Shown: one piece after another, positions 716 to 19,534 of the stretch
Position numbering within the stretch: position 1 is the stretch's first letter
Layout: each line of letters begins with the position of its first letter
Source of the DNA: a phage
Assembly (NCBI GenBank): GCA_025677605.1
Contig: GCA_025677605.1_4110.1
Reading direction: 5' to 3' (one strand)
Length of the DNA: 64,000 nucleotides
Notes under the pieces: generated by a model
The model's database searches: none
What the model was told of the DNA's origin: nothing
The model's input: only the letters and a program-made list of their open reading frames with translations
Translations under genes and position numbers: made by a program

Positions 716-1117
716 TTACAGTCCTAAGATTGTGCGTGCTTCGTTACGCTCCTTAGTCTGCTGCATGATGTAAGCGAGCAAGTCCTTACTAATGTATCCC
801 GTGTCCATAGCTTCACGGATGGATACATCATAAGCACCGAACCCCGTGCGAACGATACGCACATCATTCAGGTTAGTGTTATAGATACCGCCGAGATCAA
901 CGGCTTCAAATACTGCATCAACAGTATATTCATTGTTACCATCATTGAAGTTTTCCAGTTCAATCGTATTGTTAGTTGCCCAACGTTTACAGCTTCCAAT
1001 GATGCGGCAATATTCAGGGTGCATGTGACCATTGTTTACAGCATACTCCATGCCAGCTTTACCAAAAGTCCGAGCCAGTACTAAAACGTCAGCGTAGGAA
1101 GTGATTGAGAAAGTCAT
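716..1117 (-). CDS. hypothetical protein (133 aa)
   Basis: track ORF 716..1174 trimmed to internal ATG at 1115-1117 after AAGGAG; upstream codons are the 5' UTR hairpin. Confidence 0.6.
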   Translation of the reverse strand: MTFSITSYADVLVLARTFGKAGMEYAVNNGHMHPEYCRIIGSCKRWATNNTIELENFNDGNNEYTVDAVFEAVDLGGIYNTNLNDVRIVRTGFGAYDVSIREAMDTGYISKDLLAYIMQQTKERNEARTILGL

Positions 1118-1207
1118 GGTAGTACTCCTTAAGTTAGGAGGGAGAACCATTTCCCCCCTCTCTATGTAAAACATTATACACTTTACTAAGTACTATGCAA
1201 GTACTTT

Positions 1208-1540
1208 TTACATTTTAATACCTGGATTCAGGTAGCGGTGAGATCCATATTCTGGATCGGTTTCGGTCCAGTACTGTAAATCGATAGTACCTTTAGCGTT
1301 AATCTTGTCTACCAGCTTATTCATCTTAGCGTATACTACGTCCGCATCGATGCGTTTAAAGCCAGTAGCTTTAGTGTAGTAGTAGTGATTTGCTTCACTA
1401 TCATTGAGGATATACCGAGCACCGTTTGCAGTTTGTGCGATAATGATTGAGTATTCTACTTCCCGATCCAGCCCGTCAATGAATACAGATGAAACATTGG
1501 TACGGATGAAAGCGTTTACGATAGCGATTGAAGTACTCAT
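1208..1540 (-). CDS. hypothetical protein (110 aa)
   Basis: track ORF; GGAGAT RBS; early promoters upstream. Confidence 0.6.
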   Translation of the reverse strand: MSTSIAIVNAFIRTNVSSVFIDGLDREVEYSIIIAQTANGARYILNDSEANHYYYTKATGFKRIDADVVYAKMNKLVDKINAKGTIDLQYWTETDPEYGSHRYLNPGIKM

Positions 1541-1727
1541 TTTGAATCTCCTAACTTTGTGGACCGTCGCACCATTGCCGCCCTACGAGATACATTATTG
1601 CAGTACTGCTATACTTTGTCAATAGTTTTTTATTAATAGTTTTCACTCCACCAGCAGATAGTTACTCACCGTTATTAACTATATATTTTAGATACACCTA
1701 TGCACCCGGTGGGCTAGTTTTTGTCTA

Positions 1728-1775
1728 TGCGTATATAATAGCAAAGGGACTGACCGGAGTCAATCCCTTTTTTTA
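1728..1775 (-). promoter_or_regulatory. terminator-promoter module (early-block variant)
   Basis: AGGGACTGACCGGAGTCAATCCCT stem + T7; same 90-bp module at 4803-4847, 8094-8138, 10845-10886. Confidence 0.55.
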
Positions 1776-1785
1776 TTCTTTTTTG

Positions 1786-1986
1786 TTAGATGATCTTCCA
1801 ATCTTCCACGATCATTGTAAGATACCGAACCATCGATTCGAGTGATTCGAATTCACGATAATCTGTCGCCCCACCAGCGGTACAAGTACAGCCGATTAAG
1901 CCGGATTGTAGTTCCTGGATCTTTACGTCGATCAGGTTAGCTTTAGCATCTTTCAGTACTTCAACCAGGGCGATAGCGATAGACAT
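1786..1986 (-). CDS. hypothetical protein (66 aa)
   Basis: track ORF; promoter + UTR hairpin at 1990-2050. Confidence 0.6.
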   Translation of the reverse strand: MSIAIALVEVLKDAKANLIDVKIQELQSGLIGCTCTAGGATDYREFESLESMVRYLTMIVEDWKII

Positions 1987-2075
1987 AATGTTTTACTCCA
2001 AACTATTGGCGGGAGAACTATTCCCCCGCTCTATGTAAAACATTATACACTATATGATAGTACTGTCAAATAGTT

Positions 2076-2333
2076 TTATGAGATATCCTCGATATAGTCG
2101 GCCCATTTCATTTTTTCAGTACTGTCAAGTGCAATCGGATTGTTAGGATCAAACCATTCACCATTACCGCAATACATCCCCACGGCAACGGTTTTATATC
2201 CATCCTGGGCCGTATTCCATGCAAGGCCACGATAGATACGGCCTTTAACTGGTTGCAGTACTGGTAACGTTTTATGGTCTTCTACGTAGGCCATAGCTTG
2301 AGGATTTACCCGATATTGTGTGAATTGTTCCAT
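2076..2333 (-). CDS. hypothetical protein (85 aa)
   Basis: track ORF 2076..2384 trimmed to ATG at 2331-2333 (MEQFTQY); upstream codons lie in UTR hairpin. Confidence 0.55.
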   Translation of the reverse strand: MEQFTQYRVNPQAMAYVEDHKTLPVLQPVKGRIYRGLAWNTAQDGYKTVAVGMYCGNGEWFDPNNPIALDSTEKMKWADYIEDIS

Positions 2334-2415
2334 GATGTTTCCCCTTTTAATATTGGGGGAGGATATCTCCCCTATGCAAAACATTATACACTATCAGTTA
2401 GTACTGTCAATACTA

Positions 2416-2682
2416 TCAATTAAATTTAGGATGTATTTCAATGTAGTCACAATAAGGAAAATATTCAATATAACGCGTAGTGATTGGATGTAACGGATCG
2501 GACCATACACCGTCACCCTCATAGCGTGCTATTGGGCCTTTTAAGTACTTTTGTTGTTTCCTTGACCAGTATATGGATTGATAGACTACACCAACGGCAG
2601 GAACAACGAGCGGGAGCATAGAGTGATCTAATACAACGGATTGATAATTTTTATTATAGCGATATGTTGTTTTCTTTTTCAT
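2416..2682 (-). CDS. hypothetical protein (88 aa)
   Basis: track ORF; promoter + hairpin at 2690-2740. Confidence 0.55.
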   Translation of the reverse strand: MKKKTTYRYNKNYQSVVLDHSMLPLVVPAVGVVYQSIYWSRKQQKYLKGPIARYEGDGVWSDPLHPITTRYIEYFPYCDYIEIHPKFN

Positions 2683-2734
2683 TGTTAACCTATTATAGAA
2701 ATTATTAAGGGGATATTATCATCCCCTTTTATTG

Positions 2735-2959
2735 TTATACTAGATTATTTAATCCTCTTATGGTTGATGCTTTTTCTTCTTTCTCCCATTGGCGGTAATA
2801 CTTCCATGCTTCGTGATAGGTGGCGATCAGTTTATCTTTCTCTTCCTGGGGGCTATTCAGGAATGTATCCCGATAATCAGTACTATAGATTACATCGAAT
2901 GGTTTTTTCTCAAAGGCCAGGTCTGCAACTACTGATTCAAGTACTTCGTATGTGGTCAT
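2735..2959 (-). CDS. hypothetical protein (74 aa)
   Basis: track ORF; AAAGGTG RBS. Confidence 0.6.
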   Translation of the reverse strand: MTTYEVLESVVADLAFEKKPFDVIYSTDYRDTFLNSPQEEKDKLIATYHEAWKYYRQWEKEEKASTIRGLNNLV

Positions 2960-3026
2960 GATATTACACCTTTTAGTGGGGGAGGATATCTCCCCCTATG
3001 CAAAACATTATACTTTGTTTTACTTA

Positions 3027-3290
3027 CTATGCAAGTACTTTTTTCATATAAAGGTTATATTCTACACCGCCGTAACCTTCTACGATGATATGTTTTGCGT
3101 TATCACGTTTGCACATAGTGAAACCGTTGTTGATGTGTTCTGCATTTTCCAGGGATACATCACCGATAGCGGCACATACAGCACTTATAACAGTATTCCG
3201 CAAAGTACTGGTATCGTTAGCGGTCATAGTAGTTTGCAGTACTACGTTGTCGTATACGTGTGCATTGATAGTGATTTCGATAGTGTTCAT
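3027..3290 (-). CDS. hypothetical protein (87 aa)
   Basis: track ORF; AGGAGAT RBS. Confidence 0.6.
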   Translation of the reverse strand: MNTIEITINAHVYDNVVLQTTMTANDTSTLRNTVISAVCAAIGDVSLENAEHINNGFTMCKRDNAKHIIVEGYGGVEYNLYMKKVLA

Positions 3291-3376
3291 GGTGTATCTC
3301 CTGGACTTGAGGGGAAACCATTTCCCCTCTCGATATAAAACATTATACGTTAATCTAACTACAATGCAAGTACTTT

Positions 3377-3568
3377 TTAAATTTTATTTCCGATATAGTC
3401 CGGCCTATTCTTTTCAGTCATACGCTTTGCTAATGTTTGTATATGGCTTATCGCGTTTAAGGTGTCTTCCTCCAGGGATGAATCAACATAATCAGGATCA
3501 TTCTTAACCTTGCAATGATTATGATAGCGTAGTACTGCAAGTACTTTTTTAACTTCTTCAACTGTCAT
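3377..3568 (-). CDS. hypothetical protein (63 aa)
   Basis: track ORF; start overlaps stop of 3565..3837 by 4 nt (translational coupling). Confidence 0.55.
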   Translation of the reverse strand: MTVEEVKKVLAVLRYHNHCKVKNDPDYVDSSLEEDTLNAISHIQTLAKRMTEKNRPDYIGNKI

Positions 3569-3837
3569 AATAAGTATTCCACTTCGTTAGCTTTCAGGTT
3601 AGTATCAATCATTAGTGGATTTTTGTAGTCCACAAAACGTTTAGTTTTCTCGATAGCGAAGCCCATATAATCCATCTTGCTTACAGTGCATTCATTCTTA
3701 AAAACTTCTTTCGCTGCATTGATGGCTGATTCCATTGATAACCGACCATCTAAGTTAATATTTCCAAATGATCCACCAGCAGAAGTAGGATTACCGTTCA
3801 TATCTTTAATGATCATAGTAGCGGAGTAGCTAGACAT
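3565..3837 (-). CDS. hypothetical protein (90 aa)
   Basis: track ORF; promoter 3888-3920 and hairpin 3860-3878 upstream. Confidence 0.6.
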   Translation of the reverse strand: MSSYSATMIIKDMNGNPTSAGGSFGNINLDGRLSMESAINAAKEVFKNECTVSKMDYMGFAIEKTKRFVDYKNPLMIDTNLKANEVEYLL

Positions 3838-3859
3838 AATTTTGTTTCCTTTTATTGGT

Positions 3860-3878
3860 GGGGAGAACTATTCTCCCC
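3860..3878 (-). promoter_or_regulatory. 5' UTR stem-loop GGGGAGAAC-tat-TCTCCCC (example of more than 30 copies)
   Basis: inverted repeat lying between the -10 element and the RBS. Confidence 0.6.
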
Positions 3879-3887
3879 TTGATGTAA

Positions 3888-3920
3888 ACTATTATACAGT
3901 ACTGATATACTTTGTCAAGT
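3888..3920 (-). promoter_or_regulatory. sigma70-type early promoter (TTGACA, 16 bp, TATAAT; T5/T4-early-like)
   Basis: rc of 3913-3918 is TTGACA and of 3891-3896 is TATAAT. Confidence 0.65.
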
Positions 3921-3924
3921 ACTT

Positions 3925-4329
3925 TTATTCGCCCATATAGATTAGATTATCATCGCCCACATAGGGATCGCAAACGTTGATTTCTTCGCAGTACTTAGTG
4001 AATACATCGTCATAGTGACCGATATCACGATCCCAAAAGCCAGTACCGTGACCTTCGCGAGTAAGAAAGAGATCATGACCTGCATGATTATAAGTATAAT
4101 CAGGATTATGGTGTTTTTGTACTGCTTCCATTTCATTACTAAACTTTTCAAGGAAACGAGAACATGCAATCACCGCCGCTTGATGGGCTTGCTCTGATAA
4201 TTCGTAATCTTCCAGGTAGTCGCCGTTCTCATTGTGTACAGTACTGAATTGCATAGCTTCAATGTAACCAGCGACCATAGCAGCATGATTTTTATCGTTG
4301 GCGATGTTCCGGGCTTGATTAGTAGTCAT
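3925..4329 (-). CDS. hypothetical protein (134 aa)
   Basis: track ORF; promoter 4378-4410 and hairpin 4349-4367 upstream. Confidence 0.6.
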   Translation of the reverse strand: MTTNQARNIANDKNHAAMVAGYIEAMQFSTVHNENGDYLEDYELSEQAHQAAVIACSRFLEKFSNEMEAVQKHHNPDYTYNHAGHDLFLTREGHGTGFWDRDIGHYDDVFTKYCEEINVCDPYVGDDNLIYMGE

Positions 4330-4377
4330 GATTTTATTCCTTTGTGCTGGGGAGAACTATTCTCCCCTTGATGAAAA

Positions 4378-4410
4378 CTATTATACAGTACTAAGATACT
4401 TTGTCAATAC
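4378..4410 (-). promoter_or_regulatory. sigma70-type early promoter
   Basis: rc TTGACA at 4402-4407, 16 bp spacer, TATAAT at 4380-4385. Confidence 0.65.
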
Positions 4411-4632
4411 TTAATTACGTTTAAAATGATATGTGCCTTTATCATCCTGTACGCCCCATACTGATTTACCATCAACACCAGTGAAGCCGGATTGTAATTC
4501 AATATGGAAACCATTATTATCAACTACAAAAACTTTTTTATTTTCATCCCGATAACATTGATATTCTGAATCAACATTAAAGGCCGCATCATTCAGAAGA
4601 TTGGAAGCGTAAATGCAAGTCATTGTAGTCAT
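4411..4632 (-). CDS. hypothetical protein (73 aa)
   Basis: track ORF 4411..4707 trimmed to ATG at 4630-4632 (MTTMTCIY) after AAGGA. Confidence 0.55.
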   Translation of the reverse strand: MTTMTCIYASNLLNDAAFNVDSEYQCYRDENKKVFVVDNNGFHIELQSGFTGVDGKSVWGVQDDKGTYHFKRN

Positions 4633-4854
4633 GATTTTATTCCTTATTACCAGGGAGAACCGTTCCCCCCTCTCGATATAAAACATTATACTTGATTCTA
4701 AGTACAATGCAAGTACTTTTTAAAAATAGTTTTCAGTACTGACAATACTTATATTATAGATACACTTATGCACCCTATGGGTCAGTGAGTTATCTCTCAA
4801 TGACTATATAATAGCAAAGGGACTGACTGGAGTCAATCCCTTTTTTAATCTTTT

Positions 4855-5439
4855 TTATCGTGTTATAGTTACGGCTTTTACGTCGCGTTGTTTATAGTAC
4901 TGATTCCAGATATTGCGGGTTAAACCGTAATCAAGTACTTTAATCAGGCCATTGCGATCTTGGCCTATGTTCTGCTTTCTGATATCTCTTATCGTTAGTG
5001 TTGATAAGGTATCATCAACGTGTTGTAGTGCATCAGCGAAATGGTGTTGGCGTTCAATAGTGTTACGTTTGACATTGTACTTTAATTCATTGCAAGCGTT
5101 AACGTGCTTTACACTGCCTTTGCTTGCAGTACTCAAACGATCCATAACAATAAACATATTATCAGGATCGCTTAAATGCATATGCACCTTAGCAAAGTAC
5201 TGTTTAAGGTGAGGGCGGTCATAATCTAAAAAATTCCATACCTTACATTCTGTTTCATTTTGTTCTACGCCAGCGTCACAATTAGCGACCTTAATCACTA
5301 ACCGATCATTTAAAGCGAATACGATACGGGATGATCCGGCCCCGATGATCTCCAGACCAGCCAACCGACAAGCTGTAAGGATCTCTTTGTTAGTTTCCAT
5401 TTCTGCCAGTGTACGGATGAATTTAGTATAATTACGCAT
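4855..5439 (-). CDS. putative small protein kinase-like protein (194 aa)
   Basis: Gly-rich loop IIGAGSSRIVF, lysine in VIKVA, catalytic-loop-like IRDIRKQN, DYG in place of DFG; by eye only. Confidence 0.4.
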   Translation of the reverse strand: MRNYTKFIRTLAEMETNKEILTACRLAGLEIIGAGSSRIVFALNDRLVIKVANCDAGVEQNETECKVWNFLDYDRPHLKQYFAKVHMHLSDPDNMFIVMDRLSTASKGSVKHVNACNELKYNVKRNTIERQHHFADALQHVDDTLSTLTIRDIRKQNIGQDRNGLIKVLDYGLTRNIWNQYYKQRDVKAVTITR

Positions 5440-5508
5440 TGCATTTACTCTTTAAGATAGCAGGGAGGTATTCCCTGCCTTGATGTGACTATTATATGTT
5501 AGTACTAA

Positions 5509-5736
5509 TTAGATTGCAACAGTTTTATTTGCAATTACAGAATGAATTGCGGTTTTACCTGATTTAGTACTGAATACATTAGCACGACCATTTTCAATAG
5601 TGATGCGGTATTCACCTTTACTATCAATGAGGTTGATAAATTCAGGAGTACTAAACCGAGTTACTTTAAAAGTCAGTACATTGAGTAGGTCCACCAGCGT
5701 AGTAGTTTCTTTGATGCGTTCTAAGATATTAATCAT
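5509..5736 (-). CDS. hypothetical protein (75 aa)
   Basis: track ORF. Confidence 0.55.
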   Translation of the reverse strand: MINILERIKETTTLVDLLNVLTFKVTRFSTPEFINLIDSKGEYRITIENGRANVFSTKSGKTAIHSVIANKTVAI

Positions 5737-5794
5737 TTTGTTTCTCCCCGTGTTGGTATAGATACATAGTACTAAAACAATTGAGTACTGTCAA

Positions 5795-6013
5795 TTAGAT
5801 AATTGCATATTTCTTTAAAGATAATGCGTCTTGTGTTGGCTGATACTCGATACCGTTACCGTTATCTACTTTAACTAATAAACCTTTGTCAATTAGTTTT
5901 TTAATAGTCCGTTGGCCTTGTTGAAAATTGGTAAAATGTGAATCATTACGAAAGGTATAACCGTGCTTAACTGCTTCATCAATAGTTTTCTTTTCGATTT
6001 TAGATAATTTCAT
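5795..6013 (-). CDS. hypothetical protein (72 aa)
   Basis: track ORF 5795..6070 trimmed to ATG at 6011-6013; upstream 58 bp duplicates the 5737-5795 promoter region. Confidence 0.5.
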   Translation of the reverse strand: MKLSKIEKKTIDEAVKHGYTFRNDSHFTNFQQGQRTIKKLIDKGLLVKVDNGNGIEYQPTQDALSLKKYAII

Positions 6014-6066
6014 TTTGTTTCTCCCGTGTTGGTATAGATACATAGTACTAAAACAATTGAGTACTG

Positions 6067-6321
6067 TCAACGTGATATTAGTTTTATTTTCTTATTATAT
6101 TGTTGGTGTTCATATAGGTTTATCTTTCCTGTATTCTCGATTACTATTCTGTTGTTGGTGTCCACGTCGATTACACGCAGTTTGCCGTTGCTTAACTTCC
6201 TGGGCAATAGATTACCATTAATAAACTCATTAGCAAGCTGTACGGCCTTTGTGATGATTCTCTGTGGTGCTTTATAGTGTACCCGCAAGATATTATCTTT
6301 TGATAGTTGAACCTTAATCAT
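6067..6321 (-). CDS. hypothetical protein (84 aa)
   Basis: track ORF. Confidence 0.55.
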   Translation of the reverse strand: MIKVQLSKDNILRVHYKAPQRIITKAVQLANEFINGNLLPRKLSNGKLRVIDVDTNNRIVIENTGKINLYEHQQYNKKIKLISR

Positions 6322-6383
6322 TTTAGTTTATCCTATAAAAAAGGCGGGAACTGATCCCGCCGTGTTGTTAGTACTGCAAGTTA

Positions 6384-6788
6384 TTAGATAACCTGGCGGC
6401 GTTTACTGTATACGGTAACACGGTTTCCCTTACGGTCATGACGGATCTCTCGTTTGTTGCGAATCAGTTCACTTGGACGCTTCAGGTTTACCAGGTGATC
6501 CGCGTGAGTCCATGCATTCGAATTTACCTGTACTTTAATATCAGAACCAGCGATAAATTCATCTTGAGCGTTAAGTACTGCTGACAGTTCATCAGCTTTC
6601 TTCTGTTCTGCTGCTGTCAGTACTGGCTCCGGTGAATTCACAATATCAGAGATTTCTTTGAACTGTACGGCCCAGCGTTGACCTTTCGGTGCGGTCGTGC
6701 CCATGTCTTTAAATGCTGCTCCTTCCTCGCGTGCAACAATACGGGCAGCTTCACGGGTAGCGTAGAATTTAGTAATCATGGTATACAT
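6384..6788 (-). CDS. hypothetical protein (134 aa), paralog of 18198..18464
   Basis: shares ATRE.AR..G.AFKDMG and C-terminal HDRKGNRVTVYS with 18198..18464. Confidence 0.6.
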   Translation of the reverse strand: MYTMITKFYATREAARIVAREEGAAFKDMGTTAPKGQRWAVQFKEISDIVNSPEPVLTAAEQKKADELSAVLNAQDEFIAGSDIKVQVNSNAWTHADHLVNLKRPSELIRNKREIRHDRKGNRVTVYSKRRQVI

Positions 6789-6874
6789 CCTATTAGTTAA
6801 GTTAGTACTACAAGTTAGAGTCTATTATAAAGTACTATCTGGGCAATGTCAAATAGTACTTTAAATGGATTCTA

Positions 6875-7198
6875 TTACATATCTTTCTTACGTTTTACAT
6901 CGTTGTAGCGAACTGTGATTTCTTTGTTGATCTCTTTCTCAATGTGGTGAATAACTTTTTCTTTCGGGTTGAAACCTATAACCGTTTCTTTAATGATCTC
7001 CAAGCCCGTGTATTCGCCTTGTGTACCGTAACCGTAAGTAAAGGTTTCATGTCCCAGGTCTTCCCAGCGGTCGCCAATCAACGCAGACACGTAGCAAGAG
7101 TGGTAAGTATTGCCGTGTGAATCAGTCCACCGATTAACTTTAATGTCAAAGGATGTTACAATTTTCAGTTCTACTTTCTGGGTAAGGATCATAGCCAT
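6875..7198 (-). CDS. hypothetical protein (107 aa), paralog of 12672..13016
   Basis: shares GNTY, YGYG and C-terminal DVKRKKD with 12672..13016. Confidence 0.6.
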   Translation of the reverse strand: MAMILTQKVELKIVTSFDIKVNRWTDSHGNTYHSCYVSALIGDRWEDLGHETFTYGYGTQGEYTGLEIIKETVIGFNPKEKVIHHIEKEINKEITVRYNDVKRKKDM

Positions 7199-7286
7199 TT
7201 TTATTTCTCTCTTTTAGTTAGGAGGGGAACCGTTTCCCCTCACTCGATGTAAACTATTATACAGTACTAAGATACTTTGTCAATAC

Positions 7287-7469
7287 TTATTTTTTGGAAA
7301 GTTTACGCATTAATTCTACGCTTTCTTGTGAACGTTTTGCTACCTGGCAATCTGCATGGGCAGTAAACATTTTTGTATAGTCTGACGCTTTGCCACCGAA
7401 CCGAGCGGCACGTTCACGGGCACTTGGAACTAATACAATTTCTTTCTTACAGATAGTGCACTTAGCCAT
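7287..7469 (-). CDS. hypothetical small Cys-containing protein (60 aa)
   Basis: track ORF; CxxC near N-terminus; 5' region near-identical to that of 6875..7198. Confidence 0.55.
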   Translation of the reverse strand: MAKCTICKKEIVLVPSARERAARFGGKASDYTKMFTAHADCQVAKRSQESVELMRKLSKK

Positions 7470-7556
7470 TTTTATTTCTCTCTTTTAGTTAGGAGGGGAA
7501 CCATTCCCCTCACTTGATGTAAACTATTATACAGTACTAAGATACTTTGTCAATAC

Positions 7557-12270: not shown

Positions 12271-12321
12271 GGTATTATCCTCAATATTAGCGGCCTAAAT
12301 CAACCGCTAACGATGTTTTGA

Positions 12322-12591: not shown

Positions 12592-12671
12592 TATACTATC
12601 CTCTTAAGTTAATTTAATTTCTTTCCCCTATGCAGACACTATATCAAAGTATCTGCATAAAGTAAAGCTAA

Positions 12672-13016
12672 TTAAAGATCTTTTTTGCGTTTAACATCAG
12701 TTACCGAACTGTAAACAGTGATATTATTGTCACGGCAAAAACGGGAAAGATAAGAACCGCGTAAAAACTCTTTACCTTCCATATCAATAACCTTGCTAAA
12801 TTCATCCATTGCTACGGTGTCAAAGTGATCCCCGTATCCATATTGGAACGGCACGTTTACTACTTCAATAAAATTACCATCAATTTCTACGTCTACACTT
12901 AAAGAGAAATAAGTGTTACCATATGAAGCCTGGAACCAACGCCGAGCGGCAATATGTACAACTTCAACAGAAGACAGGTTGATATTTTGTGCTGTGATAG
13001 TGTTGATGTTAGCCAT
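12672..13016 (-). CDS. hypothetical protein (114 aa), paralog of 6875..7198
   Basis: track ORF; shared motifs with 6875..7198. Confidence 0.6.
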   Translation of the reverse strand: MANINTITAQNINLSSVEVVHIAARRWFQASYGNTYFSLSVDVEIDGNFIEVVNVPFQYGYGDHFDTVAMDEFSKVIDMEGKEFLRGSYLSRFCRDNNITVYSSVTDVKRKKDL

Positions 13017-13096
13017 TTTTAGTTTCCTCAGTTGTTTTGATAAAATCTATTATGCCAGTACTATCAATCTATGTCAATAGTACTGTGATAATAATT

Positions 13097-13309
13097 TTAC
13101 TTACTTTCTTTCGATGCTTTATGTTGTGCAACTGCCATTACTACATCAGCACGAACAAAGTTTTTAACCGTGTCAGTGTAATAATTGATTGCATCGTCTA
13201 TATCTGCGAACGTCCGATACATACCGCACCAAGATACTTTATAACCTGCTTTCACTTGTTCCAGCTTAACCAGTGATTTGTTTACTTTGATTTTAGTAAT
13301 GATAGCCAT
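13097..13309 (-). CDS. hypothetical protein (70 aa)
   Basis: track ORF; promoter variant TTGACA-17-CATAAT upstream (three copies of this promoter region). Confidence 0.6.
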   Translation of the reverse strand: MAIITKIKVNKSLVKLEQVKAGYKVSWCGMYRTFADIDDAINYYTDTVKNFVRADVVMAVAQHKASKESK

Positions 13310-13391
13310 TTTTTGTTTCCTCTTAGTTGTCTTGATAAAATCTATTATGCCAGTACTATCAAACTATGTCAATAGTACTGTGATAATATTT

Positions 13392-13535
13392 TTACTTACT
13401 TTTTGCTTTCTTTGCTGCTTCCACCTGGTCGGCCCACTCTTTACCCCATACTTGAGCATTATAGTGATACTGACAAAGAGCAACGCCCCGCTTCAAACCA
13501 GTAATAGATTTTTTACCACATTGACAAGTTTTCAT
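13392..13535 (-). CDS. hypothetical small Cys-containing protein (47 aa)
   Basis: hand-translated MKTCQCGKK...; promoter + hairpin upstream. Confidence 0.45.
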   Translation of the reverse strand: MKTCQCGKKSITGLKRGVALCQYHYNAQVWGKEWADQVEAAKKAKSK

Positions 13536-13622
13536 TTTAGTTTCCTCTTAGTGGGGAGAACCATTTTCTCCCCTTGATGTAATGTATTATACTTTATCTG
13601 ATTTACTTTGCAAGTACTTTTT

Positions 13623-13850
13623 TTAATTTAATTCATCCAGGCAAAGGATACGCTCAACGCCCAAATCAGTTAAACTAATAGACGGCACTTGATAGGTTTC
13701 AACGTATTCTACACTCGCCCACTGACCGAACTCATTCACCGCCCAGGTATTCATTGCAAAATGTAATTCCGCACCTTTCTTATTAGTAATTACAGCAACA
13801 GTAGAAGAATTGCCAGTAGTACCAGATACGCGAGTGATTACGATAGCCAT
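13623..13850 (-). CDS. hypothetical protein (75 aa)
   Basis: track ORF. Confidence 0.6.
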   Translation of the reverse strand: MAIVITRVSGTTGNSSTVAVITNKKGAELHFAMNTWAVNEFGQWASVEYVETYQVPSISLTDLGVERILCLDELN

Positions 13851-13920
13851 TGTTTTGATTCCTATTCAGTAGTTGATGTATGTATTATCGCAGTACTTAA
13901 AACTATTGTCAAACTATTTT

Positions 13921-14073
13921 TTAAAGTTTATCAATGATTGATGCCGTTTCATTGATAGTCTTGCCGTGTTTTGCACACGCGATAACTGCTTTAAATTCCT
14001 TTGATGACCAATCTTTTTTACTGCATACTGACATTACTTGTAAAGTGAAACAATCCAGTTCATAAGTATTCAT
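13921..14073 (-). CDS. hypothetical small protein (50 aa)
   Basis: hand-translated; TGAGGATAT RBS. Confidence 0.4.
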   Translation of the reverse strand: MNTYELDCFTLQVMSVCSKKDWSSKEFKAVIACAKHGKTINETASIIDKL

Positions 14074-14177
14074 CTTTATATCCTCAGTTAGTTAAGGTGT
14101 CTCGCCTTGATGAAATTAATTATACGCTAATCTCTTAATCGTGCAAGTACTTTTTATTAGTTTTTGCAAAATACTTT

Positions 14178-14269
14178 AAACGCCCGCAATCGCATTCTAA
14201 CGACCTTAACGCCACCAGCTAGGGCGATGCATCAGATAATCAGTTTAATGCGTTAGAATCGATTCTAGG
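14178..14269. repeat. conserved motif AAACGCCCGCAATCGCATTCTAACG with inverted partner CGTTAGAATCGATTCTAGG
   Basis: motif also at 9229-9253 and 19431-19456, each just distal to a terminator. Confidence 0.45.
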
Positions 14270-14300
14270 CGGTGCTGGGGGCATGGTAAACGATAAACAC

Positions 14301-14327
14301 AAAAAAGCCCACTGTTTAAGGTGGGCT
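14301..14327 (-). terminator. intrinsic terminator (AGCCCAC..GTGGGCT + U-run)
   Basis: inverted repeat with A6 on plus strand, after the 14349 stop; same design at 15031-15058. Confidence 0.55.
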
Positions 14328-14348
14328 AGTGATTCAGTACTTTAATTG

Positions 14349-14831
14349 TTATGCTTCAACTTTGCGATGAGCTTCGATCCATTCCTCGCGAGTCAATCCG
14401 CTTTCTTTGATAGCATCCAGTACTACGGCAATGCAGTTACCGCGTACTGGTACAGTGTATTCCTCGCCATTATCCAGAACTACCGGCACGCGTTCCTGAA
14501 TCCATTTTTTAGCTTTTACTTCTGGCTTGTCTTCCCCGTATTTCGCTGCCAGGGCTTTACGTGCCATTTCGGTTACTACTTCCAGATCAAGCCCAGCGAC
14601 GGCGGCGTTAATATCTTCAATCGTTTTCTGCAATTCAGCTTCGCGTGCTGCCTTCTCAGCTTCAAGTGCCGCCGCTTTATTAGCTTGTAGTTCTTTCGCT
14701 TCGCTGTACGCAATGTTAAAATTGTTGCGTACTGCTTTCATGGTATCGCTATCCAGTTCAGCCAGGATCTCAGCCGCTACGTTAGTTTCATTTGCTACCA
14801 GTGCTTTGATGAATGATTTTACATTAGCCAT
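14349..14831 (-). CDS. hypothetical Ala/Glu-rich protein (160 aa)
   Basis: track ORF 14349..14846 trimmed to ATG at 14829-14831 after TGAGGAAT. Confidence 0.6.
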   Translation of the reverse strand: MANVKSFIKALVANETNVAAEILAELDSDTMKAVRNNFNIAYSEAKELQANKAAALEAEKAAREAELQKTIEDINAAVAGLDLEVVTEMARKALAAKYGEDKPEVKAKKWIQERVPVVLDNGEEYTVPVRGNCIAVVLDAIKESGLTREEWIEAHRKVEA

Positions 14832-14887
14832 TATATAATTCCTCAATTAAAGTTTAGTTTACGTTTATTAGTGTATCAAAGTTTTCT

Positions 14888-14948
14888 TGACGTGTCCAGT
14901 TTTTCGTTCGACTTACTGGCGGTCTACTTAGTGTTCCCCGTCTTGATG
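14888..14948 (-). repeat. conserved leader element, degenerate copy C
   Basis: related to 7910-7972 and 17947-18021. Confidence 0.4.
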
Positions 14949-15030
14949 TAATACATTCTACGCTTTTCTTCGGTAATGTCAACTACTTTTTTAAAACTAT
15001 TTTCAAAGTATCTCAGTACTACACCACTAC

Positions 15031-15058
15031 AAAAAAAGCCCACTGTTTAAGGTGGGCT
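15031..15058 (-). terminator. intrinsic terminator (AGCCCAC..GTGGGCT + U-run)
   Basis: same inverted repeat as 14301-14327, downstream of 15076..15375. Confidence 0.55.
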
Positions 15059-15075
15059 ATTGATTCAGTACTAGA

Positions 15076-15375
15076 TTATAAACAGTTAATTACTCCTGTG
15101 TGCGTTACTTTCTCAGTATCCATAACCGTGACCGAACCGCGTTTTTTCTTCGCATCATAATAAATTGTTGTGCTACCTTTCGCATCTTCTTCATGGAACG
15201 GGCCATTTTTAAATGCTTCTGGCTGTAATTCCAGATCCTTTAAAACAATCTCGCCAGTACTTTCATCGGTCATTGCTACGGTGCACTGAATGAATTTATC
15301 ACCAGGTACATCTAACGACGCATTAACAGCGAAAGAGGAAACAGATAAAGCCAGGGCGATGATTGCTACTTTCAT
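15076..15375 (-). CDS. putative secreted protein (99 aa)
   Basis: N-terminal signal-peptide-like MKVAIIALALSVSSFAVNA. Confidence 0.6.
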   Translation of the reverse strand: MKVAIIALALSVSSFAVNASLDVPGDKFIQCTVAMTDESTGEIVLKDLELQPEAFKNGPFHEEDAKGSTTIYYDAKKKRGSVTVMDTEKVTHTGVINCL

Positions 15376-15460
15376 TTGATTATCCTTAGTTACCAGGGGA
15401 ACCGTTCCCCCCCTTGCTATGTAAAATATTATACAGTACTAAAAACTAATTGCAAGTACT

Positions 15461-15697
15461 TTATGATTTTTTATAAAACATTTCGGCAGTGATATTTTTA
15501 CCCGTTGGTTGTACTTTATCCAGGATTTTTTGATGCCCGGACCGTCCAAATGAATATGATCCGTAAACCGTAAACCAGTAGTTACCCTCAGTGTTTACAT
15601 GTACAGCACAATAGGGAACGCCCCGCGATTCATCACTAGTAAAGTGTGCTACCGTTCCCGTTACATTCGAAGACGTTGATTTGATTTGTTCGACCAT
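15461..15697 (-). CDS. hypothetical protein (78 aa)
   Basis: track ORF. Confidence 0.6.
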   Translation of the reverse strand: MVEQIKSTSSNVTGTVAHFTSDESRGVPYCAVHVNTEGNYWFTVYGSYSFGRSGHQKILDKVQPTGKNITAEMFYKKS

Positions 15698-15805
15698 TTT
15701 CTTATTCCTTAGTTACCAGGGGAACCGCTCCCCCTATGCAAAACATTATACGCGTTTAAAAACTATTAGCAAGTATTTTAATAAAAAGTATTTGAAAAAT
15801 AGTTC

Positions 15806-15934
15806 TTGACAACTGCATCCAATACTGGCATAATTACTACATAAAGACAAAACAGTCTCTAACCCACCGGGTGCATAGATCCGTCTATTAAATGATTCAG
15901 TACTGAAAAAAGAAAGGGGATCAATTGATCCCCT
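15806..15934 (+). ncRNA. candidate small plus-strand transcript (promoter TTGACA-17-CATAAT, conserved CTAACCCACCGGGTGCATAG element, hairpin at 15915-15934)
   Basis: plus-strand promoter in an otherwise minus-strand block; no ORF; ends at a hairpin + T-rich stretch. Confidence 0.3.
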
Positions 15935-15939
15935 CGTTG

Positions 15940-16161
15940 TTATTTTGTAAGGTATAAACAGAAGTCACCTTTATTTGCTACGCCGCCAGTGTAACGCGAT
16001 GAATAGTTAGAAACGTCCTGGACTTCTGCTATTACCAGTGTATCATCATTCAATTCGTCGCAGAAGCAAACGGCTGGATCTTTTACGCCGATATTGTCGG
16101 CATGTTCCCGCATAGATTTAACCAGTGCTTCAAGTTGGGAAAGGGTAGTAATGTTAGCCAT
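15940..16161 (-). CDS. hypothetical protein (73 aa)
   Basis: track ORF 15940..16191 trimmed to ATG at 16159-16161 (MANITTL). Confidence 0.55.
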   Translation of the reverse strand: MANITTLSQLEALVKSMREHADNIGVKDPAVCFCDELNDDTLVIAEVQDVSNYSSRYTGGVANKGDFCLYLTK

Positions 16162-16246
16162 TTTATTTTCCTCATTACCAGGGAGAACCATTTCTCCCCT
16201 CTATGTAAACCATTATACAGTACTAAAAACTAATTGCAAGTACTTT

Positions 16247-16450
16247 TTAATTTAATTGCTTAAAAACATACTCAAAGACACGACGCACATCATTGATCAT
16301 CGCCTGGCGGTTAGCAGGTAACGCATCAGGATCGCCACTATCCCAGGCATTGATAAAACTCCCCAAATCATGATAGATTTTATTCTGTAAGCCGATTAAC
16401 TGCAATTCTTTTTCTTCAAGCTCTTTGATACGTTCAATTAAATCACTCAT
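16247..16450 (-). CDS. hypothetical protein (67 aa)
   Basis: track ORF 16247..16486 trimmed to ATG at 16448-16450 (MSDLIERI). Confidence 0.55.
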   Translation of the reverse strand: MSDLIERIKELEEKELQLIGLQNKIYHDLGSFINAWDSGDPDALPANRQAMINDVRRVFEYVFKQLN

Positions 16451-16467
16451 TATATAATCCTTAGTAC

Positions 16468-16752
16468 TTAACTGTAAGATCCGCAACGGTCGCAGTAGTG
16501 CCCGTCCTCGTCATCGTCAACGAATTGACCGACGAAATGATCTACTTTCGCTTTCAGGTTATTATAATCGTTTTCTACTTCCTTTAAACGCTTCTGGTAG
16601 TATTCCAGTGCTTTAAGATATGCCGCATCAGCAGTTTTCTCCTGCATAGCTAAATTCATGCCACGCGTTTCATCGTACAGCCAAAAACCATCGGTGCACT
16701 GGCTAATAGATAATGACTTGCTTAGTACTGTATAGTTAATTACTTTGCTCAT
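16468..16752 (-). CDS. hypothetical protein (94 aa), C-terminal CDRC motif
   Basis: track ORF. Confidence 0.6.
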   Translation of the reverse strand: MSKVINYTVLSKSLSISQCTDGFWLYDETRGMNLAMQEKTADAAYLKALEYYQKRLKEVENDYNNLKAKVDHFVGQFVDDDEDGHYCDRCGSYS

Positions 16753-16837
16753 TAGATAATCCTCAGTAAAGGCGGGAACTATTCCCCGCCTCGATATAAA
16801 GTATTATACGTTAATCTAACTACAATGCAAGTACTTT

Positions 16838-17110
16838 TTAGTTTTTTAATTCTTTTACTGCATCAGGTGCGACAGAACCATCAATGTATTGAACATCGTT
16901 TTCAACTTCACGGGCGGCATCATTCAGCAGATCAAAATTAAATTCCATTTCTTCCAGATCATCAAAATCAGGCTCATAACCATTAATTGTTGAATAAGTC
17001 CAAGTACCTTTTTCATAAGTCACGACACTTACATCAGGGAAGAAATCTTGCACATGATCCATTGCATCCCGAACCAGTTGATGTGCAGTTGTGATATTTA
17101 AAGTTTTCAT
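16838..17110 (-). CDS. hypothetical acidic protein (90 aa)
   Basis: track ORF. Confidence 0.6.
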   Translation of the reverse strand: MKTLNITTAHQLVRDAMDHVQDFFPDVSVVTYEKGTWTYSTINGYEPDFDDLEEMEFNFDLLNDAAREVENDVQYIDGSVAPDAVKELKN

Positions 17111-17203
17111 TTTGTTACCCTTTTAGTGTGAGCGGGGAACCACTCCCCGCCTCGATATAAAGTATTATACGCTTTTAAACTTAGTATGCAAGTACTTTTT
17201 AAA

Positions 17204-17878
17204 TTAATATTCGATTGATTCTACTACGCCATCAATAACATTGAATTGATATTCGTTACCCTCAATCAGTGCCGTAATGTTTTCAGTAGTGAATTGATCC
17301 TCATATGCATTCTCTAAATCACGGTACAACTTGCGGGATAATTCACGAATAGTTTCAGTGAGTAGTTCCTCAAGCTCATTAACTAACGCTTCTTGTTTTG
17401 CGGTTAAATCAGTGTAAGCCGATTCAATGTACCCGCTTACAGTGTTTTCATGCGAGTAGTTGGAGTGAGAACGCTTTACACTCATTGCCAAATCATCTTC
17501 ATTCAGCAGGTGACGGATTGAGCGATACTTAGTTAATGCTCTAACCTTGCGTAAAAACTTCTCAGCGTCAACGTGGTCAGTACTAATTGATGCACCGTCA
17601 CCCTGCGACCAAAAACCACTGAATTGTATTTCAGCGTCATTAATGCCATATTCCGGTAGTACTGTTTCTTTATAGTATTCAATTTCACTTTCAGAAAAAT
17701 AATCGTCGTTTAAGTTTTTTTCACGTTCCCGAACCAGTTCGATAGCTGACGTTTGTTGTTCTGCGTTCAATTCAGAAAAATCCATAACGAAAGTAGTATT
17801 AGTGACAGTTTTCGCTTTGCAACCCTCATTCAATTCAGAAAAATCCATAACGAAAGTAGTAGTAGTGATAGTTTTCAT
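17204..17878 (-). CDS. hypothetical acidic protein (224 aa) with N-terminal tandem repeat
   Basis: two direct copies of TTTFVMDFSELN encoded by a duplicated segment of about 57 bp at 17770-17880. Confidence 0.6.
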   Translation of the reverse strand: MKTITTTTFVMDFSELNEGCKAKTVTNTTFVMDFSELNAEQQTSAIELVREREKNLNDDYFSESEIEYYKETVLPEYGINDAEIQFSGFWSQGDGASISTDHVDAEKFLRKVRALTKYRSIRHLLNEDDLAMSVKRSHSNYSHENTVSGYIESAYTDLTAKQEALVNELEELLTETIRELSRKLYRDLENAYEDQFTTENITALIEGNEYQFNVIDGVVESIEY

Positions 17879-17946
17879 TTTGTAACTCTCATTCAGTAGT
17901 TGATGTAAGTATTATACGCTTTTAAAAACAATTGTCAAACTATTTT

Positions 17947-18021
17947 ATCAGGGGAGTTTTTCGTGTGCCTTACTCCTGGGCTACTTAACGGGGAGTTACT
18001 TATTTCGTTCCCCGTCCTGAT
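17947..18021 (-). repeat. conserved leader/small-RNA-like element, copy B
   Basis: near-identical to 7910-7972. Confidence 0.5.
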
Positions 18022-18197
18022 GTAAAACATTATACGCCTTTAAACATAGTTTGCAAGTACTTTTTATCAAATAGTTTTCAGTACTGGCATTGTACTTAAT
18101 CACTTTACTATAGATACACTTCCGCACCCTATGGGCTATCGCCTTGTGTCCGGCTTGTAAGTATTATCTCACTAAGCCGGATAATGGTCAAGTACTT

Positions 18198-18464
18198 TTA
18201 TTCAAGTACTGCAATCTTTTTAGTACTGTACACGGTAACACGGTTTCCCTTGCGGTCGTGCTTTATTTCTACCACTCGACGCGATACACTATCAGGACTT
18301 TTTAACGCCGCTAACCAGTACTGAATTGATCGGGCTGTACTTTGCTTTACTACGGCCCAACGTTTACCCCTGGCTGATTGTACGCCCATATCTTTAAACG
18401 TTGCACCGTCAACCTTTGCCGCTTGCCGAGCTTGTTCACGCGTCGCAAAGTATATAATATTCAT
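18198..18464 (-). CDS. hypothetical protein (88 aa), paralog of 6384..6788
   Basis: track ORF 18198..18518 trimmed to ATG at 18462-18464 (MNIIYFATRE). Confidence 0.55.
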   Translation of the reverse strand: MNIIYFATREQARQAAKVDGATFKDMGVQSARGKRWAVVKQSTARSIQYWLAALKSPDSVSRRVVEIKHDRKGNRVTVYSTKKIAVLE

Positions 18465-18546
18465 GCTGTTACCCCTATCGTTGTTGTATAAAAGAAATCT
18501 ATTATAAAGTACTATCACCGTGCAATAGTACTTTTAATCTATTCTC

Positions 18547-18786
18547 TTACATGCCAACCATTGCAGCACGGATCGCAGTAGTGCTATACTTGAATCCGTC
18601 CGGTGTTTTATCTTGTCCAGTCTGTTCTAAAAATAGCATCATATGACGGGCCGCATCATTTCGATTAGTGTTAGCGGCAATAAAGTCCAGGGCCAACCGG
18701 TATAATGATTCATCGTTATTAATCCAAAGGCTTACATTCCATTGAGTTTTGTTTTTGTGACCTAAGAACATTTTTGATTTAGCCAT
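18547..18786 (-). CDS. hypothetical protein (79 aa)
   Basis: track ORF. Confidence 0.6.
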   Translation of the reverse strand: MAKSKMFLGHKNKTQWNVSLWINNDESLYRLALDFIAANTNRNDAARHMMLFLEQTGQDKTPDGFKYSTTAIRAAMVGM

Positions 18787-18879
18787 TTTTAAATCCTCTT
18801 AATTATAGTGGGGAACTATTCCCCACCGGATAGAAAGTATTATACATTAATCTAATTACTTTGCAAGTACTTTTTTAAC

Positions 18880-19242
18880 TTATTCGTAAATCTTGCCACT
18901 GTCAGCCCATACCAGGAAACGAGGCATATTATCCCATGCATCTTGTTTTAAGTTTAAGCCGTGCAATACTTCGGTACTTTCCATCCCAGGCACTGGTTTA
19001 CTATACACCGCAAATAGTTCGCCCATGTACTGATAAGCCATCGTTAAATCACTGGCAATCATCTTGTGGATCATCGCATCAAGCATCACAGTAGCGGCGT
19101 ATTGTTCACGCTTAAGCGGCAACATTGCAATCAATTCCCGATAAGCTGATATATGAATCTTTACAGTCTCAGCCGGAAGATCTTTCATCTCTTCGCGAAA
19201 GTTAACCAGGTTAGCAATGATTTTAGTGATTTGAGTCGCCAT
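18880..19242 (-). CDS. hypothetical protein (120 aa)
   Basis: track ORF. Confidence 0.6.
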   Translation of the reverse strand: MATQITKIIANLVNFREEMKDLPAETVKIHISAYRELIAMLPLKREQYAATVMLDAMIHKMIASDLTMAYQYMGELFAVYSKPVPGMESTEVLHGLNLKQDAWDNMPRFLVWADSGKIYE

Positions 19243-19534
19243 CGTTTTAATTCCTATTAAAGTGAGTTAGGAGCGTTTCCCCCGTCTCGATGTAAAACAT
19301 TATACGCCCTTAAACATAGTATGCAAGTACTTTCTACAAATACTTTTAAAATAGTTTTCTTTCTATATAGGAGTACTATCATTCAGTACTGAATCAATCC
19401 AGTGGTACAATTATTCAGTACTATACCCTTAAAACGGCCTCAATCGCGTTCTAACGCATTAATACACCTAAGCTATACATTTGCACCACTCCCAACAATC
19501 CAGGGCTTTACGGGCCGTTTAAACACCAGTACTG

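Follow-up and report, generated by a model that had tools for sequence, protein, structure and literature searches.

A predicted leader stem-loop in repeated early promoter cassettes of a jumbo coliphage

Hardly any early gene of the jumbo coliphages, or of other large lytic coliphages, has a known function, and the layout by which these genes are expressed is poorly understood. In a 64,000-nucleotide stretch of phage DNA (GenBank assembly GCA_025677605.1, contig GCA_025677605.1_4110.1; hereafter, the window), small early genes are preceded again and again by a GC-rich hairpin. A first-pass annotation, made from the sequence alone, counted more than 30 copies of this hairpin, assigned one to almost every early gene of the region, and proposed that so uniform a structure would either stabilize the mRNAs or serve a regulon as a shared site for an RNA-binding regulator or nuclease. 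What is this hairpin, then, and why has it been repeated? The comparisons reported here point to a stem-loop that would be transcribed as part of a portable promoter cassette and that appears to be kept for its pairing rather than for its letters.

Hairpins occupy a fixed place in early promoter cassettes

The hairpins lie in minus-strand cassettes of about 90 bp arranged head-to-tail. Each cassette consists, in this order, of an A-rich tract (AAAAAGTAC), a -35 box (TTGACA, TTGCAA, or TTGCAT), a 16-nucleotide (nt) spacer frequently ending in AGTACTG, the -10 box TATAAT, the sequence GTTTTACATAGA or AGTTTACATCAA, the hairpin, an A-rich linker carrying the Shine-Dalgarno (SD) sequence, and ATG (Table 1). 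Stems of 6 to 10 bp enclose loops of 3 to 5 nt, and the 5' arm is always the G-rich one. All 25 intact copies, which span positions 1138 to 18827, start 8 to 16 nt (mostly 10 to 14 nt) past TATAAT and end 11 to 23 nt before ATG, that is, between the -10 element and the ribosome-binding site (RBS), where the first-pass annotation had put them. Two further copies, whose cassettes have their -35 boxes at 11572 and 19326, are decayed.

Megablast assigns the window to the genus Asteriusvirus, the 121Q/PBECO4-type jumbo coliphages, with phage A4 as the top match (94 to 95% identity). Positions ~400 to 21,900 align to the extreme record ends of other relatives (WPEC5, BAU.Micro_ELP-22, and BF17), and in vB_Ec-M-J the cassette match falls within a feature annotated as "Direct Terminal Repeats." The direct terminal repeats of Asteriusvirus measure ~21 kb (PMC13070987). 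From these alignments, we judge that the hairpin-rich early region, positions 1 to ~21,000, corresponds to such a repeat. The genes of the first 21 kb are on the minus strand, small (29 to 224 codons), and annotated as hypothetical; GC skew and gene orientation both switch near ~22,000. By analogy with T5, the terminal repeat may carry the first genes to enter and to be expressed.

Not every early gene has a hairpin. It was found 5' of 24 of the 52 genes predicted between 1,000 and 19,400 and after 18 of the 37 terminal-repeat promoters that differ from the consensus by at most two mismatches, so that both "almost every early gene" and the count of more than 30 copies were overestimates. The four hairpins that had been cited as examples were all recovered (3860-3878, 4349-4367, 10070-10088, and 16180-16199), and a quoted variant, GGCGGGAACTATTCCCCGCC, turned out to be the plus-strand reading of the copy at 16769-16792.

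The hairpins are non-random, and chance is excluded as their source. Within positions 1 to 20,000, we counted 11 GC-rich hairpins with perfect pairing over 7 bp or more, as opposed to a mean of 0.125 (maximum of 2) in dinucleotide shuffles, and only 1 was present in the remaining 42 kb of the window. A covariance model built from 13 copies returned 22 minus-strand matches in the window, all of them within 1135-18832. An Rfam scan of positions 1 to 22,000 (E ≤ 1) yielded two chance-level matches (E = 0.46 and 0.78), neither of them at a hairpin. The exact consensus proposed earlier, with three mismatches allowed, recovered 2 sites only, since its loop was counted differently and the stems vary; we used hairpin and promoter scans instead. 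Likewise, a MAFFT alignment of all 25 copies was out of structural register and was replaced by the covariance model and a gap-free alignment of the 13 copies with 3-nt loops.

Pairing appears to be conserved on the transcribed strand

In the gap-free alignment, 92% of the cells pair, and 4 of the 9 pairs have changed on both sides. The covariation observed was reached by none of 500 shuffles, and shifting the pairing partner by 1 to 3 columns lowered the pairing to between 49% and 74%. In five relatives, orthologous genes retain a hairpin, often with a different sequence. For example, the gene at 18786 is preceded by GTGGGG/CCCCAC in the window and by GCGGGG/CCCCGC in A4, and the gene at 11818 by GAGGGGAAA in the window and GTGCGGGAA/TTCCCGCC in A4. 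In place of the hairpin at 3309-3329, the orthologues in A4 and JP4 carry GCGGGGGAA/TTCTCCCGC, and three different hairpins occur before the gene at 9133, the orthologues carrying others than the window. Only 2 of the 27 copies have decayed.

The two strands are not equivalent. When the strands were compared in 100 distinct promoter-proximal hairpins, drawn from the window and from seven loci, the sense strand was the more stable one in 62 and the antisense strand in 21 (Wilcoxon P of about 1e-7, computed over copies that are not independent). Aligning 75 distinct sense copies to the covariance model gave 48 G.U against 12 A.C appositions, and one stem position held GC in 39 copies, AU in 20, GU in 16, and AC in none; a model-fitted alignment leans toward its own structure, and an unbiased scan gave 11 G.U and 2 A.C. 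The same 75 copies contained 16 different loops of 3 to 5 nt. These patterns indicate that the hairpin is strand specific and is maintained as a structure on the transcribed strand.

The layout recurs with unrelated stems in other phages

The same layout, with the hairpin starting 9 to 14 nt past the -10 box, was found in RaK2, in A7_1 (Vequintavirinae), and in muut (Stephanstirmvirinae), where the stems are unrelated to those of the window. The RaK2 stems include GGGGATACA, GGGAATGAA, GGGGCAA, and GGGAGAGA; those of A7_1, GCCGCA, GGCGGCA, GGCGGC, GGGGCG, and others; and those of muut, GGCGGGAAA, AGGCGGTGG, GGGCGGCA, and others. Expressed as hairpin-carrying over all stringent promoters, the frequencies were 18/38 in A4, 14/38 in 121Q, 7/26 in RaK2, 9/16 in A7_1, and 9/21 in muut, next to 18/37 in the terminal repeat of the window. 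They were 1/46 in the rest of the window, 2/28 in Yersinia phage fHe-Yen9-03, 2/44 in RB49, and 0/23 in T5. Hairpins of this layout are restricted to early promoters, and T5, RB49, and the remainder of the window have essentially none. Pattern scans of IMG/VR returned essentially only 121Q itself.

This recurrence across lineages with unrelated stems is, in our judgment, the strongest argument for a selected structure. Together with the compensatory changes and the swapped hairpins, the unrelated stems in four lineages suggest that structure and not sequence is under selection; pairing would be what is selected, through an effect that we can only infer.

Predicted transcription start and folding of the leader

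Where transcription would start can be estimated from the promoters. Within a conserved TACAT, an A preceded by a pyrimidine is the 8th nt past TATAAT. The distance from the -10 box to the start is the same in T7 promoter A1, where the start is annotated (498) at the A of ATCGAGAGGG, ten bases that are identical to the start region and first stem bases of several cassettes. For leader calculations, we therefore assumed, after T7 A1, a start at the A of CAT or TAT, the 8th nt past the -10 box. The hairpin would then begin at about +4 to +8 of a leader averaging 44 nt, with a mean gap of 19 nt between hairpin and ATG. This geometry would place the hairpins inside the predicted transcripts, downstream of consensus promoters, in line with the earlier proposal of a leader hairpin beginning at roughly +5.

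In the predicted folds of the 25 leaders, the hairpin was the dominant structure. The SD/AUG region was on average 65% unpaired, and it was fully open in all four minimum-energy folds inspected. The spacing between hairpin and ATG (11 to 27 nt) was looser than that between the -10 box and the hairpin (mostly 10 to 14 nt), which would tie the element to the promoter or the 5' end and not to the RBS. A small upstream open reading frame (ORF) starting at a loop ATG was considered and rejected: its SD-to-ATG distance would be ~2 nt, and an ATG is missing from most loops.

A possible role in protecting early messages

The explanation that we favor, albeit tentatively, is that of a sequence-independent leader hairpin in a mobile early promoter cassette with the conserved start region TTTACAT and, past the hairpin, an unstructured A-rich linker. 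Transcription by host sigma-70 RNA polymerase would begin at the A of CAT or TAT, giving an RNA with about 3 to 7 free nt ahead of a hairpin (-10 to -16 kcal/mol) that acts through its structure rather than its sequence. The hairpin would most likely shield the 5' ends of early mRNAs from 5'-end-dependent decay (by RppH and then RNase E/G), and mRNA stabilization is our best single guess for its role. The hairpin would also prevent the RBS from pairing with upstream sequence, so that the cassette could express any small gene joined to it. Because the cassettes are repeated head-to-tail, they could double as recombination substrates for the gain, loss, and exchange of genes and thereby drive gene shuffling.

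This reading has precedents. Secondary structure at the 5' end stabilizes Escherichia coli mRNAs because RppH and RNase E require single-stranded 5' ends (PMC3997798). The stabilizer stem-loops of E. coli ompA and papA resemble the window element in being sequence-independent hairpins near the 5' end of a transcript, upstream of an accessible RBS. They differ in that they need few unpaired 5' nt, whereas the overhang predicted here, from a start that is itself predicted, is 3 to 7 nt; moreover, the window element is multicopy and resides in a mobile promoter cassette.

Early RNAs of T7 offer a second comparison. The A1 RNA starts with AUCGAGAGGG, which matches the start region and first stem bases of several cassettes (e.g., those with -35 boxes at 4712, 3369, and 1200). 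The A1 and A2 RNAs both fold, by prediction, into 5'-terminal hairpins (-15.9 kcal/mol with z = -5.0 and -14.7 kcal/mol, respectively; T7 119-158 and 247-286). Those hairpins, however, are single-copy, have another shape, and pair almost from nucleotide 1, and to our knowledge, their role in the early RNAs has not been established. The phi10 leader used in pET vectors served as a further T7 5' hairpin for comparison. Lytic coliphages may in general have 5'-proximal hairpins at their strong sigma-70 early promoters.

Several considerations weigh against protection of the 5' end and against selection as the sole source of the patterns described above. The assumed start would leave an average of 4.9 nt (range, 1 to 9 nt) unpaired at the 5' end, which is borderline for such protection. 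According to Emory et al. in 1992, protection of the ompA type reportedly tolerates no more than about 2 to 4 free nt. RppH is active with 2 to 3 free nt, a figure obtained for the Bacillus subtilis enzyme (PMC3997798). RNase E, when scanning, readily bypasses ordinary stem-loops (PMC9943677), so that little protection may come from a hairpin set back from the very 5' end; for the same reason, we dropped the idea that the hairpin is an obstacle to RNase E scanning. About half of the strong promoters of the region have no hairpin and have shorter leaders, among them ~10 equally good ones (e.g., those at 17938, 13912, 13372, 13077, 9815, 9545, 7892, 6852, 6070, and 5794), and the hairpin is therefore not essential for early expression. 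As for selection, strand-biased C-to-T mutation on the nontemplate strand could partly underlie the G.U excess, and shared ancestry and gene conversion between cassettes account for part of the apparent conservation. A literature search found no transcriptome study of an Asteriusvirus.

What these data define is a module of ~90 bp, made up of promoter, start region, leader hairpin, and RBS, that is common to at least four phage lineages and apparently selected for RNA structure. It provides a testable handle on how early phage messages survive while mRNA decay is being reprogrammed, on how ORFans are shuffled between phages along with their expression signals, and on the construction of portable strong-expression parts for E. 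coli.

Termination and comparison with known promoter stem-loops

The hairpin might act instead on RNA arriving from upstream, as an attenuator or terminator of read-through or as the protective 3' end of a processed upstream message, each gene being expressed mainly from its own promoter. The terminal repeat would have some use for such a device, as ~45 strong promoters follow one another in tandem over 20 kb with only ~10 canonical terminators. The hairpins also share with intrinsic terminators a GC-rich stem of 7 to 10 bp and a short loop, and in the annotation of phage G17, ARNold marked as a terminator the orthologue of 16769-16792, the only copy of this hairpin class so marked at the locus compared. 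However, the 9 nt past the stem hold on average only 1.8 T (and 4.2 A) in the 25 hairpins, versus 5.8 T in the real terminators of the region (9298-9323, 6343-6361, 15914-15935, 15037-15058, 14306-14327, 371-393, and four terminator-promoter composites). A terminator scan called all of the latter and none of the 25 hairpins, in keeping with the earlier remark that no U-run follows them. An intrinsic terminator was rejected on the grounds of the absent U-tract, the A-rich tails, and the position inside 5' leaders.

Three features of the layout also speak against attenuation. Lying downstream of its own promoter's start, the hairpin would hit that promoter's transcripts as well; it keeps its distance from the -10 box and not from the upstream stop codon; and the region contains separate, genuine terminator-promoter composites, so that a different design is used for termination. 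We consider attenuation unlikely.

The closest described system is nevertheless one whose stem-loops were interpreted by their authors as terminators, namely, the promoter-early stem-loop (PeSL) cassettes of the T4-type phages RB49/phi1, PST/T4, and nt-1/KVP40 (PMC2839356, PMC4122927). In RB49, PeSL stem-loops, built of a G-run, a loop, and a C-run, cut the expression of a downstream lacZ like a strong terminator (PMC2839356), which favors attenuation by analogy. PeSL cassettes, too, are repeats of ~70 to 100 bp with an AT-rich tract, a near-consensus sigma-70 early promoter, a G-run/loop/C-run stem-loop, an SD sequence, and ATG; they are located in variable, "hyperplastic" regions rich in small ORFans, where they mediate the shuffling of modules, and the breakpoints of indels and replacements fall within them.

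The two systems differ in the placement of the stem-loop, one of the features by which PeSL is defined. The PeSL stem-loop is upstream of the promoter, in its spacer, or across the -10 box, whereas the window hairpins are wholly downstream of both the -10 box and the predicted start. Direct inspection of RB49 bore this out: its G-run/C-run stems either lie between the two promoter boxes or straddle the -10 box (e.g., TTGACGGGGATCGGGAGATCCCCTATAAT) and are hence absent from the promoter's own RNA. In addition, the window hairpins have no U-tract, and their phage is not T4-type. We apparently deal with an undescribed variant of promoter/stem-loop cassettes, one that would extend the PeSL concept beyond T4-type phages and add a second layout, transcribed from its own promoter. 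Publications on CBB, PA5oct, RaK2, rV5, and fEgEco12 mention RpoD-like promoters or terminal repeats and not these hairpins.

Two other known elements were considered and rejected. The hairpin promoter of N4 lies upstream of the start and is itself the promoter for the virion RNA polymerase, without sigma-70 boxes; here, a consensus sigma-70 promoter precedes every hairpin at a fixed distance. RNase III sites need longer stems than those present.

Recognition by a trans-acting factor

A hairpin so uniformly placed on one temporal class of genes could also be a tag read by an RNA-binding protein or nuclease of phage or host origin, which would time early shutoff, modify RNA polymerase for antitermination similar to that by N at nut, or mark the messages as "self." Within Asteriusvirus, the core GGGGA...UCCCC is conserved, the loops are biased to TAG, TGG, CGG, and ATGG, and many stems hold GGAG, the motif at which T4 RegB cleaves early mRNAs (PMC3014915). 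That motif, however, is buried in the paired stem. The loops vary in both length (3 to 5 nt) and sequence, and in RaK2, A7_1, and muut, the stems are wholly different while the position is kept. Such variation, including unrelated stems in related lineages, speaks against a sequence-specific RNA-binding protein as the shared regulator of the "regulon" proposed in the first-pass annotation. No candidate protein was identified. Altogether, a tag of this kind is improbable.

The lambda nut site illustrates the difficulty. It resembles the window element as a short hairpin in a nascent early leader, but boxB has a conserved GNRA-like pentaloop, is read by N together with boxA, and occurs once per operon and further downstream. 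The window hairpins have no boxA-like partner and no conserved boxB-type loop. We rejected a lambda-type boxB given the variable loops, the ~25 copies, and the lack of a conserved second element between hairpin and SD sequence.

A bolder version takes the hairpin as the functional core of a cassette moving between unrelated families of large coliphages (Asteriusvirus, RaK2-like phages, Vequintavirinae, and Stephanstirmvirinae), where it would serve as a "self" mark by which early mRNAs either escape, owing to its shape and 5' position, the accelerated RNase E/G-dependent decay to which these phages subject the host or are recognized by a dedicated phage factor that times their shutoff. We regard this as speculative and doubtful. 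If true, it would reveal a shared posttranscriptional layer of control over host takeover, beyond a simple stabilizer.

Cassettes and recombination

The repeated cassettes coincide with places where related genomes come apart. No relative covers 80% of the 22 kb, and the alignments are split into 10 to 21 pieces. Using collinear blocks of at least 250 bp between the window and five relatives, we found 52 of 89 distinct block ends inside promoter cassettes, compared to 23% expected from coverage, and 39 of the 89 inside hairpin cassettes, compared to 14%; this enrichment is partly trivial, as conserved cassettes lengthen alignments and breakpoints favor intergenic DNA. Adjacent blocks often overlap on a single window cassette at points where an additional gene, with a cassette on either side, is present in the other phage. 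For instance, blocks 8627-8921 and 8873-9174 overlap at the cassette of the hairpin at 8877-8896, and WPEC5 has an extra gene between the two counterparts. This signature is the same as that of PeSL and suggests that the cassettes are hot spots of gene gain and loss. Duplication of whole promoter cassettes, and recombination between them, account for much of the uniformity of the hairpins.

Is the hairpin itself then a functionless passenger of a spreading cassette, or a DNA-level promoter of recombination or template switching? The breakpoint excess in hairpin cassettes would fit, as would the exchange of hairpins among orthologues and the near-identical cassettes in unrelated phage families. 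In addition, the crossover of an RB49 mini-circle was mapped inside the loop of a PeSL stem-loop (PMC2839356). A pure passenger, however, would not be expected to stay at one distance from the -10 box in four lineages whose stems are unrelated, nor do compensatory changes that preserve pairing and the decay of only 2 of 27 copies fit such an origin. A DNA-level role is countered by the hairpin-less cassettes, which recombine too, breakpoints being enriched over all promoter cassettes. We think that neither version is likely to be correct. Should the hairpin prove to have no effect on expression, the finding would shrink to a recombination-prone repeat.

A DNA operator and the neighboring palindrome

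The weakest explanation is a double-stranded DNA operator at +5 to +25 on which a dimeric repressor blocks elongation or promoter escape: a perfect or near-perfect inverted repeat just past the start of one temporal class of promoters would be a classical roadblock site, yet the half-sites vary in spacing (loops of 3, 4, and 5 nt; stems of 6 to 10 bp) and in sequence among copies and lineages, the symmetry is broken mainly where RNA pairing survives (48 G.U versus 12 A.C), and the palindrome CAGTACTG is a much better operator candidate, making a DNA operator or a sequence-specific protein site very unlikely.

The palindromic octamer CAGTACTG has 56 sites in the window on both strands, with 0.96 expected from shuffles (e.g., 3897-3904, 8616-8623, 20953-20960, 21125-21132, 38279-38286, and 63942-63949). 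In many cases, it takes up the final 8 nt of the promoter spacer, immediately before TATAAT, or lies in intergenic TCAGTACTGAAAACT contexts, and it is present in the RaK2 and Yersinia phage loci as well. It looks like a binding site for a DNA-binding protein, putatively a regulator or a nucleoid-type factor.

Table 1. Promoter cassettes and leader hairpins of the terminal-repeat region (hairpins as 5' arm-loop-3' arm)
Feature	Position	Strand	-35 box	Sequence and remarks
Complete example cassette	3835-3918	-	3913-3918	-35 TTGACA; 16-nt spacer ending in CAGTACTG; TATAAT 3891-3896; AGTTTACATCAA; hairpin 3860-3878; ACCAATAAAAGGAAACAAAATT; ATG
Hairpin	18807-18827	-	18866	GGTGGGGAA-tag-TTCCCCACT
Hairpin	17131-17151	-	17191	GGCGGGGAG-tgg-TTCCCCGCT
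Hairpin	16769-16792	-	16830	GAGGCGGGGA-atag-TTCCCGCCTT
Hairpin	16180-16199	-	16239	GGGGAGAA-atgg-TTCTCCCT; one G.U pair
Hairpin	15717-15736	-	15772	TAGGGGGA-gcgg-TTCCCCTG
Hairpin	15395-15411	-	15455	GGGGGAA-cgg-TTCCCCT
Hairpin	13553-13573	-	13613	GGGGAGAA-aatgg-TTCTCCCC
Hairpin	11840-11860	-	11898	GAGGGGAAA-ctt-TTTCCCCTT
Hairpin	11281-11302	-	11343	GGGGGGGAA-atgg-TTCTCCCCT; two G.U pairs
Hairpin	10504-10522	-	10563	AGGGGAAA-ccg-TTTCCCCT
Hairpin	10070-10088	-	10128	GGGGAGAA-tag-TTCTCCCC
Hairpin	9151-9169	-	9208	AGGGGAA-acatc-TTCCCCT
Hairpin	8877-8896	-	8936	GGGGAGAA-atga-TTCTCCCC
Hairpin	8579-8597	-	8637	GGGGAGAA-gtt-TTCTCCCC
Hairpin	7493-7511	-	7553	GAGGGGAA-tgg-TTCCCCTC
Hairpin	7222-7241	-	7283	GAGGGGAA-acgg-TTCCCCTC
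Hairpin	5459-5479	-	5519	GGCAGGGA-atacc-TCCCTGCT; 17-nt spacer
Hairpin	4652-4670	-	4712	GGGGGGAA-cgg-TTCTCCCT; two G.U pairs; sense -10.5 versus antisense -5.2 kcal/mol
Hairpin	4349-4367	-	4407	GGGGAGAA-tag-TTCTCCCC
Hairpin	3860-3878	-	3918	GGGGAGAA-tag-TTCTCCCC
Hairpin	3309-3329	-	3369	GAGGGGAAA-tgg-TTTCCCCTC
Hairpin	2978-2996	-	3034	GGGGGAG-atatc-CTCCCCC
Hairpin	2356-2372	-	2410	GGGGAG-atatc-CTCCCC
Hairpin	2009-2029	-	2069	GCGGGGGAA-tag-TTCTCCCGC; one G.U pair
Hairpin	1138-1160	-	1200	GAGGGGGGA-aatgg-TTCTCCCTC
Decayed copy	11513-11532	-	11572	GGGGAG-aaatagta-CTTCCC; orthologues retain intact GGGGAGAA-atga-TTCTCCCC
Decayed copy	19264-19288	-	19326	GAGACGGGGGAAACGCTCCTAACTC; WPEC5, G17, and JP4 orthologues retain intact AGCGGGAA-cac-TTCCCGCT

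Other repeated elements

The terminator-promoter composites of the terminal repeat, which have the true PeSL layout, lie on the minus strand at 1743-1770, 4816-4843, 8108-8135, and 10856-10883. Further composites were found at 42479-42496, 43898-43923, 47094-47121, 48720-48747, 51378-51405, and 59809-59836. They take the form of a hairpin such as AAAGGGATTGAC-tccg-GTCAGTCCCTTT-gc-TATTAT, in which the stem includes the -35 box, TTGACT, and the -10 box that comes next reads either TATTAT or TATAAT.

The composites of the terminal repeat drive a noncoding element of ~55 nt that occurs in multiple copies, near 1713, 4781, 8078, 10821, and 18135 on the minus strand and near 15863, 20176, and 20392 on the plus strand, as well as in RaK2 and fHe-Yen9-03. 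It contains a hairpin of 3 to 5 bp with a purine-rich loop (GNGAAA or AGAUAA), for which 17 copies from three genera have 11 different stems; then come 4 to 5 nt, CCC-N3-4-GGGUG, and GUAUCUAUAG. No ORF follows the element, Rfam gave no match to it, and RNAalifold found only the CCC/GGG pairs. We consider it a candidate multicopy small RNA conserved over jumbo-phage genera.

A third repeated leader, beginning with GTTTTACATCAGGACGGGGAACGAAATAAGTAACTCCCCGTTAAGTAGCCCAGGAGTAAG, follows the minus-strand promoters at 18056, 14982, and 8008 and is also found at 6888 in A7_1. It has nested GGAC/GUCC and GGGG/CCCC pairings and no ORF directly downstream, and it is ~90% identical between the window, an Asteriusvirus, and that phage of the Vequintavirinae.

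Finally, near-identical hairpins of the form GCCAGTAC-N3-GTACTGGC, each with a plus-strand T-run, are located at 27768-27788, 28950-28968, 31464-31482, and 32715-32733, among the plus-strand genes between 27 and 33 kb. They are probably repeated terminators that follow duplicated genes.

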